Shown in pieces: positions 1,533 through 59,256 of a DNA stretch of 64,000 bases. Origin of the DNA: Escherichia phage SR02; the sequence record OQ870566.1. One strand, written 5' to 3'. The notes under the pieces are model-generated. The model saw only the letters and a program-made list of their open reading frames with translations, was not told where the DNA came from and made no database searches. Positions within the stretch are counted from its first letter, which is position 1. Each line of letters opens with the position of its first letter. Position numbers and translations under genes: made by a program.

Positions 1533-4175
1533 TTACTTAGAAGGCATTTCAACACGAACCGAAATGAACGCATCCTTAGGAATGTCAACAGGGTCTCCGT
1601 CAGAAAAACCTTCCAACTCGTTTCTAGCAAAAGATGGGGATGTTGAATGGGTTCTATGATAAGTTTTAATTAAAAGAGAACCATCCTCTTTAACCTCATA
1701 ATCCAACCAAACTCTAGGCTGTTTGTTACGATCTATTGGGATTTCAAAACCTCCATCTACCCCACCCCATCCTGCATCAGAATTAAGACCAAGGCACCCT
1801 AAAATTAAATAAACCCCGGTGGAGACTTTCTTAACACTAACTCCATCGGATTGTTCATTTGTTTCAAAACTTCCGTCATGGAATACCTTAACTATTGGTG
1901 ACGCTGCTTTAATAAAACCGTTGACGTCAACAGTTGTATTTACAGTATCGTATATCGTCCTTGAGGTCCTCCACCCACTGCCTGCTGCACCACCAAAAAC
2001 TTTTATCTTACCGGCAGACTCAAACGGAATACTTATCATACTGTATGTGTCTCCTGCCCTAAAGAAGAGGTTTGAGGAGTAGTTCCATATATCCCAAGGT
2101 GCTGCTATTTGTTGGTTATTCCTAAACACACACAGCCCATAAGTGTCAAGTCCAGCAAGAAGTTGGTCTTGTGAAGTAGTATCAAAAACAAGAGCACCAT
2201 CAGGTCTTCCAATTCCAAAATCACCAACCTTAAGAACATTACCGCTGGTAGTTCCAGTGTTTAGAGTAGCTGAACTCCCCAACCCTAGGTTAAACCTTGC
2301 ACCAGCAGCATCCCCAGCACCTGTCCCACCGCTAGCAATAGGGACGTTATCTAGAGTAGAAACACTCCCAAGACCTAAGTTGGAACGAGCACCAGCAGCA
2401 GTAGTTGCTCCAGTACCTCCATTGGCTACGGGTATATTGTTTAGTGTGGACACTGAACCCAAACCGAGATTGCTTCGTGCACCAGCAGCATCCTTAGCTC
2501 CTGTACCCCCTTGAGGAATACCAAGAGCAATAAAACCGCCATCTGTTACGTTCTGGCACCCCCAAGAACCACCAGTATTGTCAACATAAACACGACGGGC
2601 ATAATCAGGAGAATATATCAAAGTCTGCGAGTTGTCTTGTTGAAATCTTTCAAGATTCAGGTTTGCCCTAGCTTCAGATGGAGTTTTCCCTCCTGTACCA
2701 CCCTGAGCGATAGAGAGAGCTGTAGTGAGTCCTGTCAGGGATGTTATATCAGAGTTTGCACCAGAAGAAGCTGCTCCCAAGATAGATCTGGAGAGGGTTA
2801 CGTTCCCTGTAATCTCATCAGGAGCTTGATTATTTACCGTGACAACATAAGGTTTCTGAGCCTGTACAGACCCATTGTATTGAGAATCTTTATCAGAATC
2901 TGGTGCTCTTATTGCCTCCCCTCCAGTCCAATCAGGAAGTCGAATATTGATGAAATTAGTAGAATCCGCATCAGTAATCCCATCTGCTAGCTTACCCCAT
3001 GAGAAATATTGTTTAGACCCTGCTTGCCATTCAGTTTCAGAGACTACAGGAAGCTGACCACTGACAAGAGATGGGCCTAAGTCGAGAGCAGATTCTTTTG
3101 ACACTAGACGACCGTCCGCAGGAAGAACTCCTGGGTAGGAGATATTCTTAGTTGGGTCATAAGGGAACATCACCATTTCACCAAGGTACAAAGAGGGGTT
3201 CCCTGTTGGAATGGTGATATCAATGTTGCCACTGGAGTCTGGAGAACGGGAGTTAACGGTAAGGATTCTACCTTCAGTTTTAACAGGAGTTAGTGTTTTG
3301 TTAGCAGCAACAGTATAGAATTCATACTTAGTAGCTTCCCAAACTAAAACTTTCTCACCTACTTGACGATACTGAGCATCAGCATCAGCTTCTGCTTTTG
3401 ATTGGTATGTCTTGGTAGTCTTGTCAAATTTGTCATTAATCTCTTGACGACTGTACTGAGCAACGTTCAGAACATTCCCTAAACCTACTGTCTCTTTGTT
3501 GATTGTTAGAGCTACCTCTCCATCAAGAGCTGGTCCCCCATTAACAGAAACAGAACGAACAGATGGGATTAAGTTAGCAATATTCTCTAGAGTAGTTTTA
3601 TGGACGGTATTGTCATCTTTGTCAACATAGAAACCCAAGTCACCTAGCTCTGGAACACCTGTAGGTGCTGTATCTAAGTCTTTAACAGAACCATCTTTTC
3701 CGGGTTCACCTTCTGGGATACCTAAAGAAATTACACCAGTGTTAGGATTAAAAGAACCAGTAGCCGGAGTTCCCGGAGGGAGGGTTGTTACATCAACAGA
3801 CATTCCTAACAGAACATCAAGCTGCTTCTGGACTTCAATGAGTTTCTGGTTAATCAGGGCGACTGCGTTATTTGCATCAGAGACTGCTGCGTCAGTTTGA
3901 GCAATTAATGTCATTAGACGAGCATCTTGATCTTTAAAGTCCTGTTTAAGATCTTCAATATCTTGCTTCATCAGAACACCCTGTTGATACAGACGTTCTA
4001 CTTCAGCGATCAAGTCATCAATTGTACCAAACTTAGACTCCGCTAGCAGTGCCCAATATTTGGAGTCAGCTGCATATTCTGCTGCTTGCTTGTAAGCTCC
4101 GATAGAGCCTTCCGTAGCACCAAACTGCCCAACGTTATTCACTGCATCAGGTGCTTGGTTATTATAAACGATCAT
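1533..4175 (-). CDS. tail fiber / receptor-binding protein (880 aa)
   Basis: Long ORF with AAGGAG RBS; N-terminal coiled-coil-like region; three tandem Gly-rich repeats (AAGARSNLGLGS...); position in late block next to another fiber gene. Confidence 0.7.
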   Translation of the reverse strand: MIVYNNQAPDAVNNVGQFGATEGSIGAYKQAAEYAADSKYWALLAESKFGTIDDLIAEVERLYQQGVLMKQDIEDLKQDFKDQDARLMTLIAQTDAAVSDANNAVALINQKLIEVQKQLDVLLGMSVDVTTLPPGTPATGSFNPNTGVISLGIPEGEPGKDGSVKDLDTAPTGVPELGDLGFYVDKDDNTVHKTTLENIANLIPSVRSVSVNGGPALDGEVALTINKETVGLGNVLNVAQYSRQEINDKFDKTTKTYQSKAEADADAQYRQVGEKVLVWEATKYEFYTVAANKTLTPVKTEGRILTVNSRSPDSSGNIDITIPTGNPSLYLGEMVMFPYDPTKNISYPGVLPADGRLVSKESALDLGPSLVSGQLPVVSETEWQAGSKQYFSWGKLADGITDADSTNFINIRLPDWTGGEAIRAPDSDKDSQYNGSVQAQKPYVVTVNNQAPDEITGNVTLSRSILGAASSGANSDITSLTGLTTALSIAQGGTGGKTPSEARANLNLERFQQDNSQTLIYSPDYARRVYVDNTGGSWGCQNVTDGGFIALGIPQGGTGAKDAAGARSNLGLGSVSTLNNIPVANGGTGATTAAGARSNLGLGSVSTLDNVPIASGGTGAGDAAGARFNLGLGSSATLNTGTTSGNVLKVGDFGIGRPDGALVFDTTSQDQLLAGLDTYGLCVFRNNQQIAAPWDIWNYSSNLFFRAGDTYSMISIPFESAGKIKVFGGAAGSGWRTSRTIYDTVNTTVDVNGFIKAASPIVKVFHDGSFETNEQSDGVSVKKVSTGVYLILGCLGLNSDAGWGGVDGGFEIPIDRNKQPRVWLDYEVKEDGSLLIKTYHRTHSTSPSFARNELEGFSDGDPVDIPKDAFISVRVEMPSK

Positions 4176-5036: not shown

Positions 5037-6311
5037 TTATGCACCAGATTTAACAATATAAGTACGGAATATTGTAGAAGCTGGGTCAGTTCTCATTGTT
5101 ACTTTAGTGTCTTCACTAGTGATAGGAGCTGACAACGTGATTGTCAATACCTGACCAGAAAGAGACAATTCCATCAAACCTGCATCAGTACCTTCTACAT
5201 CATACATCAGTTTGCCGGTAAGAGCACCCTGAGGTACACCATCAAAACGAACAACACCCGGTTGAGCTGGGTCAGTGATTGTGATGGTATCTGTAGCAAG
5301 TGGGTTTTCTGGAACACCTACAACAACTGTATTAGTTACTTTTGATGCAACAAGTCCCATCAGCTTAGGAGTCGCAGTAAAACTGCACGTTGCTTGAACA
5401 GAAGGTACAGTTTTATGGACAGCTTTAACTGAAATCATTTCATCACCCGGATCAAGAGCAAGTGTCACATCACCATCAGCTGGGTCAATAGTACCTGCTT
5501 CTGCTGGAGTAATTGTGACAGTGTAATCACTAGGAGAGGAATTACCAAAGAGGAACATAACACCGAAGTTTAACAGAGAACCACCAACCTGAGGTGGTAG
5601 CTCACTAGCCCTAATGTCAGGCTTAGGAACTACACCGTTAACGTTAGCTGTTGCTGTAACAGAAGTTTGAACCTTATGGGTTGCTTTAACCTCATAGTTA
5701 CCACTAGCATTGTTAGTCAGGGTGAGAAGTCCGGTGTTAACATTCATAGAGGTGTTAGTGTTAGGGGTTACGACATAATTAAACTCAGAAGCTGGTTTGT
5801 TACTAGTGAACATTTCAGCAAATGTTACCGTATCTTCTCCAATTTTACCAGTAACTGTTTTACCAGTAATGGTAGCTTTAGCAGTAACTCCTGTAAAGGT
5901 TACAGTGGCCTCTACACCAATCTGAGTTTTGTGAGTAGCTTTAACAGTTACTGTCCCAGATGCGTTATTACTTAGAGTAAATACACCCGCTGTACTTACA
6001 GATCCTGCTGAAGTGGGGGAAACAACAAAAGAATAATCTTCTGCTACTGAGTTAGTTGCTGTAAACATTGTAGTGAAAGCTGTGGTGCTGCCACCCACTT
6101 TCCCTGTGATATTAGCTTTAGCTTCAATAGTGGCTGGCTCAAAAACAGACTGAACTGTAGCTGTCCCTGTCTTACCACCTTTAGTTGCCGTAATAGTTGC
6201 TGGGGTTTCTTGCGACGTACTCGGTGCAGTATATAGCCCAGAAACAGAAACGGCCCCACCGCCTTCAACGGACCAATTAAATCCAGTTGTGCTTGTGGAG
6301 CCGTCGCTCAT
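5037..6311 (-). CDS. Ig-like domain repeat protein (candidate head decoration); probably also made as a -1 frameshift extension of the capsid protein
   Basis: Thr/Val/Gly-rich beta repeats with recurring TLTNNASG...VKATHK motifs; weak RBS at its own ATG; reading frame stays open upstream into the capsid gene 3' end. Confidence 0.6.
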   Translation of the reverse strand: MSDGSTSTTGFNWSVEGGGAVSVSGLYTAPSTSQETPATITATKGGKTGTATVQSVFEPATIEAKANITGKVGGSTTAFTTMFTATNSVAEDYSFVVSPTSAGSVSTAGVFTLSNNASGTVTVKATHKTQIGVEATVTFTGVTAKATITGKTVTGKIGEDTVTFAEMFTSNKPASEFNYVVTPNTNTSMNVNTGLLTLTNNASGNYEVKATHKVQTSVTATANVNGVVPKPDIRASELPPQVGGSLLNFGVMFLFGNSSPSDYTVTITPAEAGTIDPADGDVTLALDPGDEMISVKAVHKTVPSVQATCSFTATPKLMGLVASKVTNTVVVGVPENPLATDTITITDPAQPGVVRFDGVPQGALTGKLMYDVEGTDAGLMELSLSGQVLTITLSAPITSEDTKVTMRTDPASTIFRTYIVKSGA

Positions 6312-21897: not shown

Positions 21898-22287
21898 ATG
21901 TTGACATTGACTATTTATTATGAGGCAGGGAATCAGCCAACCGCATGTAAAGCTATGGTTGCGGATACCGTGATAAATAGAATGGCCCAACGAAAACTGA
22001 CCGCTGAACAGGTGATAAGACAAAAGAACCAGTTTGAGTGGATTCCGGTACTATTAAAACAGGAGAAACCTTATAAACGTTATGTAAAGCTGATTCGTGA
22101 TAAAAATCCGATGACTAAGCAGGCCATTGGAGAAAGCGAGCGACTTGCTAAACGTGCCCTTAAAAAGAATTATGTTCCGCTGTACAGTGGGACTTACTTT
22201 CAGAGTAAGAGCGAAGGGGTGCCAAAATGGTATGCCAATCCTATGTATTGTGGTGATTTAGTGTTCGATAATAGCTCTAGGGAATAA
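21898..22287 (+). CDS. putative cell wall hydrolase (SleB/CwlJ Hydrolase_2-like)
   Basis: IYYEAGNQPTACKAMVADTVINR resembles the Hydrolase_2 EARGE...AVA.VVLNR motif; weak RBS. Confidence 0.4.
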   Translation: MLTLTIYYEAGNQPTACKAMVADTVINRMAQRKLTAEQVIRQKNQFEWIPVLLKQEKPYKRYVKLIRDKNPMTKQAIGESERLAKRALKKNYVPLYSGTYFQSKSEGVPKWYANPMYCGDLVFDNSSRE

Positions 22288-22486
22288 TCACTAGTGCCAG
22301 ATTTGACAAACTAAATTCCTTTATAAACCAACCACTTAGTAAATTTATTGAAAAAGATGGTAGTATTCTGGGACTATGGGTAATGCTCTGTATATAGACC
22401 CTTTGAAAATTTCTTAGAAAATAAGTTTACTAAATATAACTTACTTAAATAATATTACTTTTAATCTCTGATAAAGGGTAAATAAT

Positions 22487-22783
22487 ATGACTTTAGAGGT
22501 ATATAAATTCCTTTTTGTACTCTGTTTAACTGTCAGCGTTCTAGGATTTATTGTTCTAAGAAACAAAGCAGCAAGCTGGGAGAGAATGTATAAATCTCTA
22601 GTCCGAGTGGATGAGATGTATAATGAGAAAGTTAAAGCAACTCTTAACGATCTTATTATGCAAGTTGAAGACAGAAACAAACGTCTTCAGAATCTCAACC
22701 ACGAAGTGTTACGCCTTGCTCGTGCTAACGAAGACTTGCGAGTGGCGATTGCTAAGCAGCAGGAGATTAACAGTGAAAGTTAA
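22487..22783 (+). CDS. membrane-anchored coiled-coil protein (98 aa)
   Basis: N-terminal TM helix FLFVLCLTVSVLGFIVL followed by charged heptad region. Confidence 0.5.
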   Translation: MTLEVYKFLFVLCLTVSVLGFIVLRNKAASWERMYKSLVRVDEMYNEKVKATLNDLIMQVEDRNKRLQNLNHEVLRLARANEDLRVAIAKQQEINSES

Positions 22784-55933: not shown

Positions 55934-56342
55934 AGAACCTGTAGTTTATAAAGACTCTATCAGAGATCAATATAATGAGATGTTAAAGAAACAAGCTGAT
56001 TCTAATCTTCGTTATCAGAGGATAGTAGAACAATCTAACTTTAAGGGTTTACTTGAATGGTAACTTATATTCTTTACTTTTTGGCTTTCTTAGGAATAAT
56101 CTTTTTATCTATTATTCTTGAATTTGGTTTAAGTAAGTTAGTTAATTATTTAGGTAGTAAGTAATTAATATTCTTTTAAATAGAGAATCAAAGTCCCTAG
56201 GAGTCCCTACAACCTAAATCAAGGATTCCTTAATTCTCTATTTTTATCTCGCAGGTGGCTCCTGCCCTTCGGTACTTGCAAGGGATTCTGTGAATTGCCC
56301 AATGTACAAGCCTGCAAGAGTTATTCTCTAACTCTACCTTAT

Positions 56343-56351
56343 ATACATTAC
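56343..56351 (-). promoter_or_regulatory. candidate phage-sigma promoter element TAATGTATA, divergent from the one at 56403
   Basis: Exact 9-mer on the minus strand inside an ORF-free AT-rich region. Confidence 0.3.
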
Positions 56352-56402: not shown

Positions 56403-56411
56403 TAATGTATA
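56403..56411 (+). promoter_or_regulatory. candidate phage-sigma promoter element TAATGTATA
   Basis: Exact 9-mer 60 nt upstream of the ORF at 56471. Confidence 0.4.
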
Positions 56412-56470: not shown

Positions 56471-57217
56471 ATGTCTATGATTCCAACTATCGCAACTTCT
56501 TCCCGTAAATCCAACTACGACATTATCCCTGATGGTGAGTACGAAGCACGTATTGTTCGTGTAGTAGGTTTAGGTGTTCACAATCGTGACCCTTGGGTTG
56601 ACCCGAAGACCAAAGCAGTAACTCCTAAGAATCCAGCTTTCCGTATGGATTTGGCTTTCGAGCTGATTGGTGTTGATGCTACTGGTAAAGATTCCGATGG
56701 TAAGGCATTAGAACCGCGTCCAGCTTGCCAGTTCAAGAGCTATGATGTAAACCCACGAGCTAAGAACTCTGGTATTCTTGATCTTTGCAAGATGATTGAC
56801 CCAAGTATTCAAGCACTGAAAGGTGATCTGTCTTGGTTCAAGGATGTTCTGTTAGGCCAGCCTGTTAACATTCTGGTTAACTCTTACACTAACAAAGCTG
56901 GTGAAGTTAAAAACTCCATCAAGACCATTTCTCCAATCCCAACCAAATATCGTGCAGCAGTTGGTGAAGCTCGTAGTCCTCTGGTATTCTTCGAACCGTA
57001 TGCTGAAACCGATGAGAACGTAGCATCCTATCAACTGATGTTCCCGTTCCAGCGCAACCTGCTTACCCAAGCTAATGACGCTAAGAACATGCCTCTGGCT
57101 GGTCGTGAAATTACTCGTGCTTCTGAAACAGAACAGAAAGAAGCTACTCCTTCAATCCCTACGATTGATAGAGAGCCTACTTCTACTTACGAAGACGACA
57201 ACGATAGCCCATTCTAA
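56471..57217 (+). CDS. putative single-stranded DNA-binding protein (gp2.5-like acidic tail)
   Basis: 248 aa between a promoter motif and a strong terminator; C-terminus YEDDNDSPF is acidic and ends in Phe as in T7 gp2.5; no direct sequence similarity seen. Confidence 0.4.
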   Translation: MSMIPTIATSSRKSNYDIIPDGEYEARIVRVVGLGVHNRDPWVDPKTKAVTPKNPAFRMDLAFELIGVDATGKDSDGKALEPRPACQFKSYDVNPRAKNSGILDLCKMIDPSIQALKGDLSWFKDVLLGQPVNILVNSYTNKAGEVKNSIKTISPIPTKYRAAVGEARSPLVFFEPYAETDENVASYQLMFPFQRNLLTQANDAKNMPLAGREITRASETEQKEATPSIPTIDREPTSTYEDDNDSPF

Positions 57218-57238: not shown

Positions 57239-57263
57239 AGCCACCTTCGGGTGGCTTTTTTCG
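57239..57263 (+). terminator. strong rho-independent terminator
   Basis: Perfect hairpin AGCCACC-UUCG-GGUGGCU followed by UUUUUU. Confidence 0.8.
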
Positions 57264-57274
57264 TTGGAGATAAC

Positions 57275-57625
57275 ATGCAAAACACGTTAAGTGATAACTT
57301 AGGGTTTATCATTTTCTCAGCTCTTGTGTTCTTTGGTGGTATGAAGTTTAACGAATATCAAACAGACAGCAGTAATCTGGACAAAGAGAAGCACCAGCAA
57401 GAGTTAGAGATTGAAAGAAGTAGGGCAGCTGATGAAGTTGCTCAGAGGGTTCTTACCGGTATATCTAACTGGAAGAAGAACACGGAAACCGTTTATAAAG
57501 AGATGCATTATGAGAAAACTAAACCAGTTTTTTATAATGTCTGCGCTAGTGATGAGTATGTCAGCTTGTTCAACGAGCGACAACAGCAGGCAATCAATGC
57601 CCTTACCAACAAACCTAAAAGCTGA
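57275..57625 (+). CDS. candidate i-spanin (Rz-like): N-terminal TM plus helical periplasmic domain
   Basis: GGAGA RBS; TM helix LGFIIFSALVFFGGM followed by charged helical region. Confidence 0.45.
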   Translation: MQNTLSDNLGFIIFSALVFFGGMKFNEYQTDSSNLDKEKHQQELEIERSRAADEVAQRVLTGISNWKKNTETVYKEMHYEKTKPVFYNVCASDEYVSLFNERQQQAINALTNKPKS

Positions 57626-57766
57626 GTGTAGGGTTGATCTACCTTTTTTAGGGAGTGCTCAAGGAAAGGCACTAGCCACTACGTTGGAGTGGTATCAGGA
57701 CCAGTACACAGAATGTGCTGCTAATCACAATGGATTGTTAGAAGCCCTTAAAGAGCGTGGAATAGA

Positions 57767-57770
<4 letters not shown>
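57510..57770 (+). CDS. candidate o-spanin (Rz1-like) lipoprotein, overlapping the previous gene in another frame
   Basis: Signal peptide with lipobox (FIMSALVMSMSAC); Pro-containing mature part with Cys residues; overlapping arrangement typical of Rz/Rz1. Confidence 0.4.

Positions 57771-59256
<1,486 letters not shown>

Follow-up and report, generated by a model that had tools for sequence, protein, structure and literature searches.

At 57275–57625 and 57510–57770 of the 64,000-nt stretch of Escherichia phage DNA analyzed here (the window), two open reading frames (ORFs) lie on the + strand in different frames. They share 116 nt (57510–57625), and the second continues for 145 nt beyond the stop codon of the first. 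Both had been reported by a first-pass annotation of the sequence, and their coordinates and frames proved correct. Following the annotation of their relatives, we refer to the first as the i-spanin gene and to the second as the o-spanin gene. The neighboring genes encode a hypothetical protein, a macro-domain protein and a sigma factor, in agreement with the earlier observation that neither a holin nor an endolysin gene is adjacent. The features of the locus are as follows.

56403..56411, + strand: TAATGTATA element, the gp36-dependent promoter motif (P40); exact match, 60 nt before the gene-40 homologue
57239..57262, + strand: intrinsic-terminator-like hairpin AGCCACC-TTCG-GGTGGCT followed by a T-run, from a terminator scan; between gene 40 and the i-spanin gene
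57266..57269, + strand: Shine-Dalgarno sequence GGAG, 5 nt before the i-spanin ATG; the phage Paul record has a ribosome-binding site at the corresponding place
57275..57625, + strand: i-spanin gene, 116 aa; homologue of phi32_39 and CPT_Paul_036, named from PHROG 1152 and the annotation of relatives
57299..57343, + strand: codons of the predicted N-terminal transmembrane (TM) helix of the i-spanin, residues 9–23, LGFIIFSALVFFGGM
57510..57625, + strand: dual-coding overlap of 116 nt, encoding the C-terminal motif of the i-spanin (EKTKPVFYNVCASDEYVSLFNE...) and, in the other frame, the predicted signal peptide, lipobox and first mature residues of the o-spanin
57510..57770, + strand: o-spanin gene, predicted precursor of 86 aa and mature protein of 67 aa; homologue of CPT_Paul_035, PHROG 2425
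57558..57569, + strand: lipobox M-S-A-C, residues 17–20, by a PROSITE-type pattern match; Cys20 codon TGT at 57567–57569
57768..57772, + strand: TGATG junction, in which the o-spanin stop codon TGA and the start codon ATG of the macro-domain gene have one base in common

The pair belongs to a phiEco32-like phage and is already catalogued

At the locus, a 1.9-kb query matched the Escherichia phages Paul, SGF2, SU10 and phiEco32 over its full length at ~96% nucleotide identity, and by its sequence the source phage is a phiEco32-like podophage of the genus Kuravirus, subfamily Gordonclarkvirinae. The + strand of the window is the reverse complement of the Paul and phiEco32 records. Mapping onto phiEco32 placed the start of the window in the interior of the tailspike gene and indicated that the region at ~13.9–28.6 kb of phiEco32 (~14.7 kb) is absent from the window.

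The equivalents of both ORFs in Paul and phiEco32 are annotated as i-spanin and o-spanin or as Rz-like spanin, the latter being the RefSeq name of phi32_39. The Paul record (MN045231) gives the i-spanin CPT_Paul_036 a TMpred transmembrane domain at residues 8–23 and the o-spanin CPT_Paul_035, which is 98% identical to the o-spanin of the window, a LipoP SpII cleavage site between residues 19 and 20 with a score of 18.03. The pair of the window and those of phiEco32 (gp39/gp38) and Paul (CPT_Paul_036/035) are the same genes: their lengths (116 and 86 aa), overlap, neighbors and upstream terminator are identical. The few amino acid substitutions between them, such as I13V and I63L in the first protein or F46L and G48E in the second, bring no structural difference. 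At the o-spanin locus of phiEco32, the sole annotation is a 174-nt ORF, the truncated phi32_38.

A previous survey listed PhiEco32 as 'overlapped' in both its i-spanin and o-spanin tables (Kongari et al. 2018, PMC6139136). It placed the i-spanin of PhiEco32, to which that of the window is 97% identical, in the family 'JH2' alongside FelixO1-like phages, and the o-spanin in a group of four comprising NJ01, ECBP2, KBNP1711 and PhiEco32 (Kongari et al. 2018, PMC6139136). The pair is ordinary rather than novel, having already been annotated and catalogued for phiEco32-like coliphages. Together with the PHROG 1152 match described below, the GenBank annotation and this listing bear out the earlier proposal of a two-component spanin pair.

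The first gene encodes a predicted inner-membrane protein

The longest open frame of the i-spanin begins with a GTG at 57251, inside the upstream terminator hairpin, and this start is not credible; we took the ATG at 57275 as the start. Hydrophobicity peaked in the 15-mer of residues 9–23, LGFIIFSALVFFGGM (Kyte-Doolittle 2.25), which confirmed the N-terminal TM helix of the first-pass annotation, and no second hydrophobic segment was detected by this measure across the whole 116 aa. The protein has a single N-terminal TM domain with its bulk C-terminal to it, in line with the criteria set for two-component spanins (Summer 2007; Kongari et al. 2018). The 92 residues beyond the helix are 30% charged and include one cysteine, C90. 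Net charge was ~0 on the N-terminal side of the helix, where no positive charge is found, and ~−2 after it; from this modest difference in flank charge, we infer an N-in/C-out topology.

An AlphaFold2 single-sequence model placed helices at residues 3–28, 36–76, 80–91 and 93–111 with low confidence (pLDDT 56.6). The model weakly supports a helical periplasmic domain and, because of its low confidence, does not demonstrate a coiled coil. Searches of the PDB with the i-spanin, the o-spanin and gp40 returned no meaningful sequence relatives.

Residues 3–116 of the i-spanin matched positions 6–127 of the 127-position profile of PHROG 1152, 'Rz-like spanin' (E = 1.5e-36). This significant, full-length match and the 97% identity to the phiEco32 protein place the i-spanin within PHROG 1152 and 'JH2', for which the threshold is 40% identity of the periplasmic domain. 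An IMG/VR scan with the i-spanin recovered only 6 loci.

The second gene encodes a predicted outer-membrane lipoprotein

The N-terminus of the o-spanin, MRKLNQFFIMSALVMSMSAC, opens with the positively charged residues MRK, which lead into a hydrophobic core and then the lipobox MSAC; the signal peptide and lipobox cysteine (Cys20) claimed for this ORF from the outset were thus recovered. The residues at +2 and +3 after Cys20 are Ser and Thr. A predicted SPII signal and a lipobox cysteine are combined with a residue other than Asp at +2, as in spanins, and the protein is predicted to be sorted to the outer membrane. The mature part of 67 residues contains three prolines and two cysteines, C40 and C69; with C90 of the i-spanin, both predicted proteins would carry periplasmic cysteines suited to homotypic disulfides. 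The o-spanin matched PHROG 2425, which is unnamed (E = 4.7e-26), and more weakly PHROG 456, 'Rz-like spanin'.

The ribosome-binding site before 57510 is weak. Across the six frames of the window, we counted 3 ORFs with a lipobox pattern, compared with ~1 in shuffled sequence (maximum 3); the motif alone is not significant against shuffles and is weak evidence. Querying a large protein database with the o-spanin yielded only 6 clusters, made up for the most part of gene calls truncated to 57 aa. These clusters were unusable for assessing the invariance of the cysteines, which was instead determined by tblastn on phage genomes.

A Pfam scan of both proteins yielded nothing above cut-off. The i-spanin matched none of the spanin families, including those of lambda Rz/Rz1 (Phage_lysis, Rz1 and LysC), and the best match of the o-spanin, PF23793 LysC (Rz1-like), scored 15.1 bits (E = 0.022), short of the cut-off of 27. 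With no family above cut-off, there is therefore no sequence link to the experimentally studied proteins of lambda, P2 and T4.

The genes overlap and both reading frames are constrained

The two genes are adjacent and co-oriented, and the stop codon of the o-spanin gene (57770) lies downstream of that of the i-spanin gene (57625). The architecture is 'overlapped' and not the lambda-type 'embedded' arrangement, and the description of the pair as a classic embedded Rz/Rz1 had to be revised. Nor are the two proteins sequence-level members of the lambda Rz/Rz1 Pfam families.

To quantify constraint, we compared the locus with phage Bas88, a relative at ~80% identity. Nucleotide divergence was 8.6% in the overlap and 25.5% and 26.2% in the flanks (Fisher p = 5e-5). 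A second comparison, with an IMG/VR contig also at ~80% identity, gave a similar picture: over both relatives, divergence amounted to 8.6–11% in the overlap, 25–26% in the part coding for the i-spanin only and 26–28% in the part coding for the o-spanin only, with a Fisher p of 6e-4 for the second relative. The overlap thus diverges ~3 times more slowly than either flank. Furthermore, the i-only and o-only parts each displayed an excess of substitutions at third positions in their own frame; in the o-only part, 23 of the 38 substitutions relative to Bas88 fell at third positions of the o-frame. Substitutions within the overlap fell mostly at third positions of the i-frame, a pattern suggesting that the C-terminus of the i-spanin is tightly held and that the signal peptide of the o-spanin takes up the changes. 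At the sequence level, these patterns are decisive evidence for selection on both reading frames.

A natural rearrangement of the overlap was found in the Suseptimavirus phages SU7 and EK010, in which an HNH endonuclease gene is inserted in the former overlap and splits the pair. Both spanin genes are intact. The i-spanin keeps its conserved C-terminal motif and has acquired a new tail, and the o-spanin has an unrelated signal peptide, partly encoded in the 3′ end of the HNH gene, with a lipobox directly before the same mature sequence (SU7, ...SSLMAC/STSDNS; EK010, ...FSLSAC/STSDNS). Approximately 30 nt of the old overlap flank the insert on both sides and have since diverged. It is difficult to account for such a split if selection does not act on both ORFs and especially on the lipoprotein signal.

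A similar split by a GIY-YIG homing endonuclease has been described for the spanins of T5 compared with Shivani and phiR201 (Kongari et al. 2018, PMC6139136). The two cases share a homing endonuclease between the genes, a regenerated lipoprotein signal and a change from overlapped to separated genes; they differ in that the endonuclease of SU7 and EK010 is of the HNH type and in that this event lies in the Suseptimavirus relatives and not in the window. The HNH insertion, apparently targeting the dual-coding overlap, would represent a second, independent endonuclease-driven change of spanin architecture, a novelty of lesser weight.

Distant homologues lie next to endolysin genes

Using tblastn with the o-spanin, we detected full-length homologues in 216 phage records, 118 of which showed <60% identity and came from unrelated phage groups: Sashavirus, Proteus Gorganvirus, Quadragintavirus ESSI2, Erwinia/Pectobacterium Ounavirinae, Mooglevirus and Felixounavirus. 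Distant homologue pairs were 30–40% identical. In the eight relatives examined, the pair was always overlapped, by 107–164 nt. The lipobox cysteine was invariant in 11 aligned o-spanins from six phage groups, down to ~30% identity, and C69 of the o-spanin and C90 of the i-spanin were likewise invariant across the phage groups aligned. Both spanins contain conserved C-terminal motifs, compatible with binding between the two proteins.

The i-spanin showed 34% identity to that of the FelixO1-like phage finno (E = 3e-16), and the o-spanin 29% identity to a FelixO1-like o-spanin (E = 2e-11). Felixounavirus and Mooglevirus phages (FelixO1, finno and Michonne) share with the present pair the i-spanin motif EKTKP.F.N.C..D.Y...FNE, the overlapped architecture, the position of the o-spanin lipobox and a conserved C-terminal cysteine in the o-spanin. 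In contrast, they are myoviruses rather than podoviruses, and the central part of their o-spanin is unrelated. At this locus, DNA-level similarity to Felixounavirus was confined to one 68-bp stretch (82%), which lies inside the overlap. The FelixO1-like and PhiEco32 o-spanins have been treated as separate families at a 40% identity threshold (Kongari et al. 2018, PMC6139136).

In three of these phages, Sasha, ESSI2 and PM-CJR, the pair directly follows a gene for an endolysin or peptidoglycan hydrolase. ESSI2 has an annotated holin as well, and in Sasha a membrane protein with two TM domains is encoded between the endolysin and the pair. This layout, which resembles a classical lysis cassette, provides the best in-silico evidence for a probable role in lysis.

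The other lysis genes lie outside the window

The late structural module of phiEco32 and Paul carries, between the tailspike and tail genes, the genes of a class III holin and a lysozyme-type endolysin (phi32_16/17 and CPT_Paul_014/015), and the literature agrees (PMC9965538; PMC7881722). The phiEco32 holin and endolysin had no tblastn match anywhere in the window, which rules out that the two genes are hidden within it. They are invisible there because the ~14.7-kb segment carrying them in relatives lies outside the window, the late module being located just beyond its left edge. Judging from the genomes of relatives, the holin and endolysin genes would lie ~20 kb from the spanin pair and on the other strand. 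The linkage to holin and endolysin genes that is usual, though not required, for spanins is thus absent at this locus, and the suggestion that the lysis genes may be scattered was well founded.

ORF 21898, in the early region, matched Pfam Hydrolase_2 at 33.5 bits and is annotated as 'cell wall hydrolase' in Paul. Its designation as the only lysin-like gene holds within the window and fails beyond it, where relatives carry the holin/endolysin segment. We rejected this ORF as the partner of the pair or as the canonical endolysin, since relatives possess a holin and a lysozyme-type endolysin in the late module. The ORF that follows it (22487–22783), with a TM helix and a coiled coil, was rejected as a second i-spanin, since a lipobox partner is missing and the PHROG to which it belongs is a non-lysis one.

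The pair is probably expressed from mid-infection

The nearest upstream phage promoter for the spanin operon is the TAATGTATA element at 56403–56411. Four exact copies of this element occur in the window, compared with 0.8 expected, and none of 100 shuffles reached 4. Its consensus is the single-element promoter recognized by the phage sigma factor gp36, itself described as a middle-gene product, and gene 40 of phiEco32 has one of the six mapped gp36 promoters upstream (PMC8948821). By its position, the P40 copy is presumed to be active. The hairpin at 57239–57262 is conserved, and the same element is annotated as a terminator in Paul; transcription from P40 would have to read through it to reach the spanin genes. 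Position and secondary sources together point to spanin genes of the middle class that are reached by read-through. Given their place in the middle-gene block, downstream of P40 and the hairpin, the spanins are therefore probably made from mid-infection and not together with the holin and endolysin. A location of spanin genes behind a terminator in the middle-gene block, away from holin and endolysin, is unusual, though not unprecedented.

In the other direction, the Paul annotation also has the o-spanin gene end and the macro-domain gene start on the same base. The TGATG junction suggests translational coupling of the two genes within an operon.

Discussion

Collectively, the pair very probably constitutes a two-component spanin. 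It would connect the inner membrane with the outer one across the peptidoglycan mesh and bring about their fusion after endolysin action. Homology and anatomy make this the most likely function; lipidation, topology, binding between the two proteins, disulfides and the role in lysis are proposed by analogy. In the model drawn from lambda Rz/Rz1 and T4 PseT.3/PseT.2, the i-spanin would be anchored in the inner membrane and extend its helical domain into the periplasm, and the o-spanin, once lipidated, would be delivered to the outer membrane and reside in its inner leaflet. The C-terminal regions of the two would bind, yielding a complex that spans the periplasm, is threaded through the peptidoglycan mesh and may be stabilized by homotypic disulfides. 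These complexes would build up harmlessly until the holin and endolysin of the late structural module destroyed the peptidoglycan; the freed complexes would then collapse, fuse the inner and outer membranes and complete lysis. Early synthesis would be tolerable because the complexes are inert until the peptidoglycan is removed, as established for lambda and T4.

The pair presumably works like Rz/Rz1 without belonging to the lambda families at the sequence level. Both systems comprise an inner-membrane-anchored helical protein and an outer-membrane lipoprotein, encoded in two frames and carrying periplasmic cysteines, features that are predicted here. Conversely, lambda Rz1 is fully embedded in Rz, whereas the o-spanin gene here extends past the i-spanin stop; the mature lipoprotein of lambda has ~40 aa, whereas the present one is longer and, with its three prolines, not proline-rich; and the lambda spanin genes are the last of the SRRzRz1 lysis cassette, whereas no cassette exists here. 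T4 PseT.3/PseT.2, unlinked from the holin (t) and the endolysin (e), sets a precedent for scattered lysis genes; its proteins are similar in size (117 and 83 aa), with a predicted C-terminal helix in the o-spanin. The T4 genes are, however, separated rather than overlapped, and no sequence similarity to them was found.

Three other explanations merit consideration, which even when combined remain improbable. The pair might be envelope proteins that act in superinfection exclusion or receptor masking, in the manner of Llp and Cor, or in envelope remodeling at mid-infection, the spanin anatomy being coincidental or ancestral. Such a role would suit genes in a middle-gene replication and regulation block, contiguous with macro-domain and sigma-factor genes, distant from the holin and endolysin and on the opposite strand, with no Pfam spanin family above cut-off; moreover, the literature searched contained no experimental work on the phiEco32-type spanin family and no functional data on the pair. 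We nevertheless regard it as unlikely. Distant pairs lie directly behind endolysin or holin genes in three unrelated phage groups, an overlapped TM protein and lipoprotein with conserved periplasmic cysteines is a spanin signature, and T4 demonstrates that genuine spanins can be unlinked from holin and endolysin. In addition, no other spanin candidate was seen in the annotation of the phage group, and a Gram-negative host normally requires one. The earlier alternative that these are membrane proteins with another role is accordingly disfavored.

Doubts about the second gene alone, or about whether the pair still works, are weaker still. Were the lipoprotein ORF a chance open frame beside a single real gene, the roughly one lipobox-pattern ORF per shuffled window, the weak ribosome-binding site, the 57-aa truncations that make up most database entries and the lone 174-nt ORF of phiEco32 would all be accounted for; yet the frame, signal peptide and lipobox are open in all relatives examined, the cysteine persists to ~30% identity, the o-only part has its own third-position excess, tblastn recovers the full length in 216 records, and a new lipobox signal peptide arose after the HNH insertion had removed the original 5′ end, which leaves this the least probable of the explanations. 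Scarcely more plausible is that the pair is a decaying remnant and that the outer membrane is disrupted by a disruptin-like peptide or by products of the Hydrolase_2 region (21898–22783). The separation from the lysis cassette, the position behind a terminator and the TM and coiled-coil ORF following the Hydrolase_2 ORF could be read in this way, but a remnant would not be expected to show purifying selection in both frames or to recur in so many phage records, and ORF 22487 has neither a lipoprotein partner nor a PHROG of a lysis family.

The spanin reading thus stands as the preferred one, and a further role might be added to it. It is conceivable, though quite improbable, that expression with the sigma-factor operon from mid-infection, by read-through from P40 and with the o-spanin coupled to the macro-domain gene, reflects a second role in the envelope before lysis. 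If true, the pair would act in superinfection exclusion or in membrane tethering during DNA replication and assembly, besides or instead of disrupting the outer membrane.

For the phage group, the importance of the pair hardly goes past accurate annotation. It completes the lysis set of holin, endolysin and spanins in phiEco32-like phages, which are considered for therapy against pathogenic E. coli, and many genomes deposited for these phages still lack the o-spanin gene or carry it in truncated form. More broadly, the locus illustrates cleanly how dual coding constrains a sequence and how lysis genes can be divided among temporal classes.

Genome layout and the Hydrolase_2 region

The window was circularly permuted with respect to the records of phiEco32 and Paul, whose left ends mapped at ~14750. 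Two window segments bear on this layout:

1-170, window segment
14291-14752, window segment

The window started inside a tailspike gene, the distal part of which did not align to phiEco32. Approximately 14.7 kb of the genome lies beyond the window, and the holin, endolysin and internal virion transglycosylase are among the missing genes. The first-pass annotation had proposed a Hydrolase_2-like ORF at 21898, which was borne out by a Pfam match. This ORF and the next one were as follows:

21898-22287, Hydrolase_2 (SleB-like) ORF; Pfam, 33.5 bits; weak match to PHROG 938 'endolysin'
22487-22783, ORF of 98 aa with TM and coiled-coil segments; PHROG 12154 'DNA helicase'

The Hydrolase_2 ORF lies among the early genes and is distinct from the canonical endolysin. 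The 'DNA helicase' label of the following ORF looks doubtful for a membrane-anchored protein of 98 aa.

The gene-40 homologue and its promoter motifs

Upstream of the spanin pair, two features accompany the P40 copy, the promoter motif of the phage sigma factor gp36:

56342-56350, - strand, second exact TAATGTATA, located 53 nt before the P40 copy
56471-57217, gene-40 homologue (248-aa protein), directly 3' of the P40 motif

The second motif occupies the strand opposite to the P40 copy and faces away from it; no obvious gene was found 3' of it in its own direction. Pfam and PDB searches with the gene-40 homologue returned no match, and the protein was 'hypothetical' in 30/30 records among the matches listed (30 of 143 matched). 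Single-stranded DNA-binding proteins, E. coli SSB and T7 gp2.5 among them, have acidic tails that end in Phe, and the C-terminus of the gene-40 homologue, ...TYEDDNDSPF, presumably resembles these.

The o-spanin gene and the overlap

Mis-annotation of the o-spanin is widespread in phage records. Its ORF and counterparts (relatives in their own coordinates) were as follows:

57510-57770, window
5195-5368, locus L002 (phiEco32), phi32_38
3050-3271, locus L009 (finno), finno_42

The phiEco32 and EK010 annotations contain only a 57-aa ORF beginning at o-spanin Met30, the finno call places the start at the lipobox Met, and many other records describe a 'hypothetical protein' or lack any annotation. 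Almost all o-spanin entries in a 5.8-billion-protein database were 57-aa truncations.

At the DNA level, a 68-bp island (57509-57576), limited to the dual-coding overlap, showed 82% identity to ~230 genomes of Felixounavirus and related myophages; outside the island, the spanin locus showed no DNA-level similarity to those genomes.

HNH endonuclease genes in the spanin region

In the Suseptimavirus relatives SU7 and EK010, an HNH endonuclease gene interrupts the overlap, and other relatives carry one nearby:

1544-2581 in L006 (SU7) and 1544-2581 in L007 (EK010), HNH insertion, corresponding to window 57564-57592
1125-1538 in L016 (SU10), HNH homing endonuclease gene, with the gene-40 homologue on one side and the i-spanin gene on the other

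Approximately 30 nt of the overlap are present twice, flanking the SU7/EK010 insert. The o-spanin of these phages carries a replacement signal peptide with a lipobox, and part of the peptide's coding sequence falls inside the HNH ORF, at the 3' end. The insertion turns an overlapped spanin pair into a separated pair, providing a second example of the event described for T5/Shivani (Kongari 2018, PMC6139136), with an endonuclease of another family. The HNH gene that separates the gene-40 homologue from the i-spanin gene in SU10, KM01 and CHD5UKE1 is different from that in the SU7/EK010 overlap. Endonuclease insertions have thus targeted this small region repeatedly.
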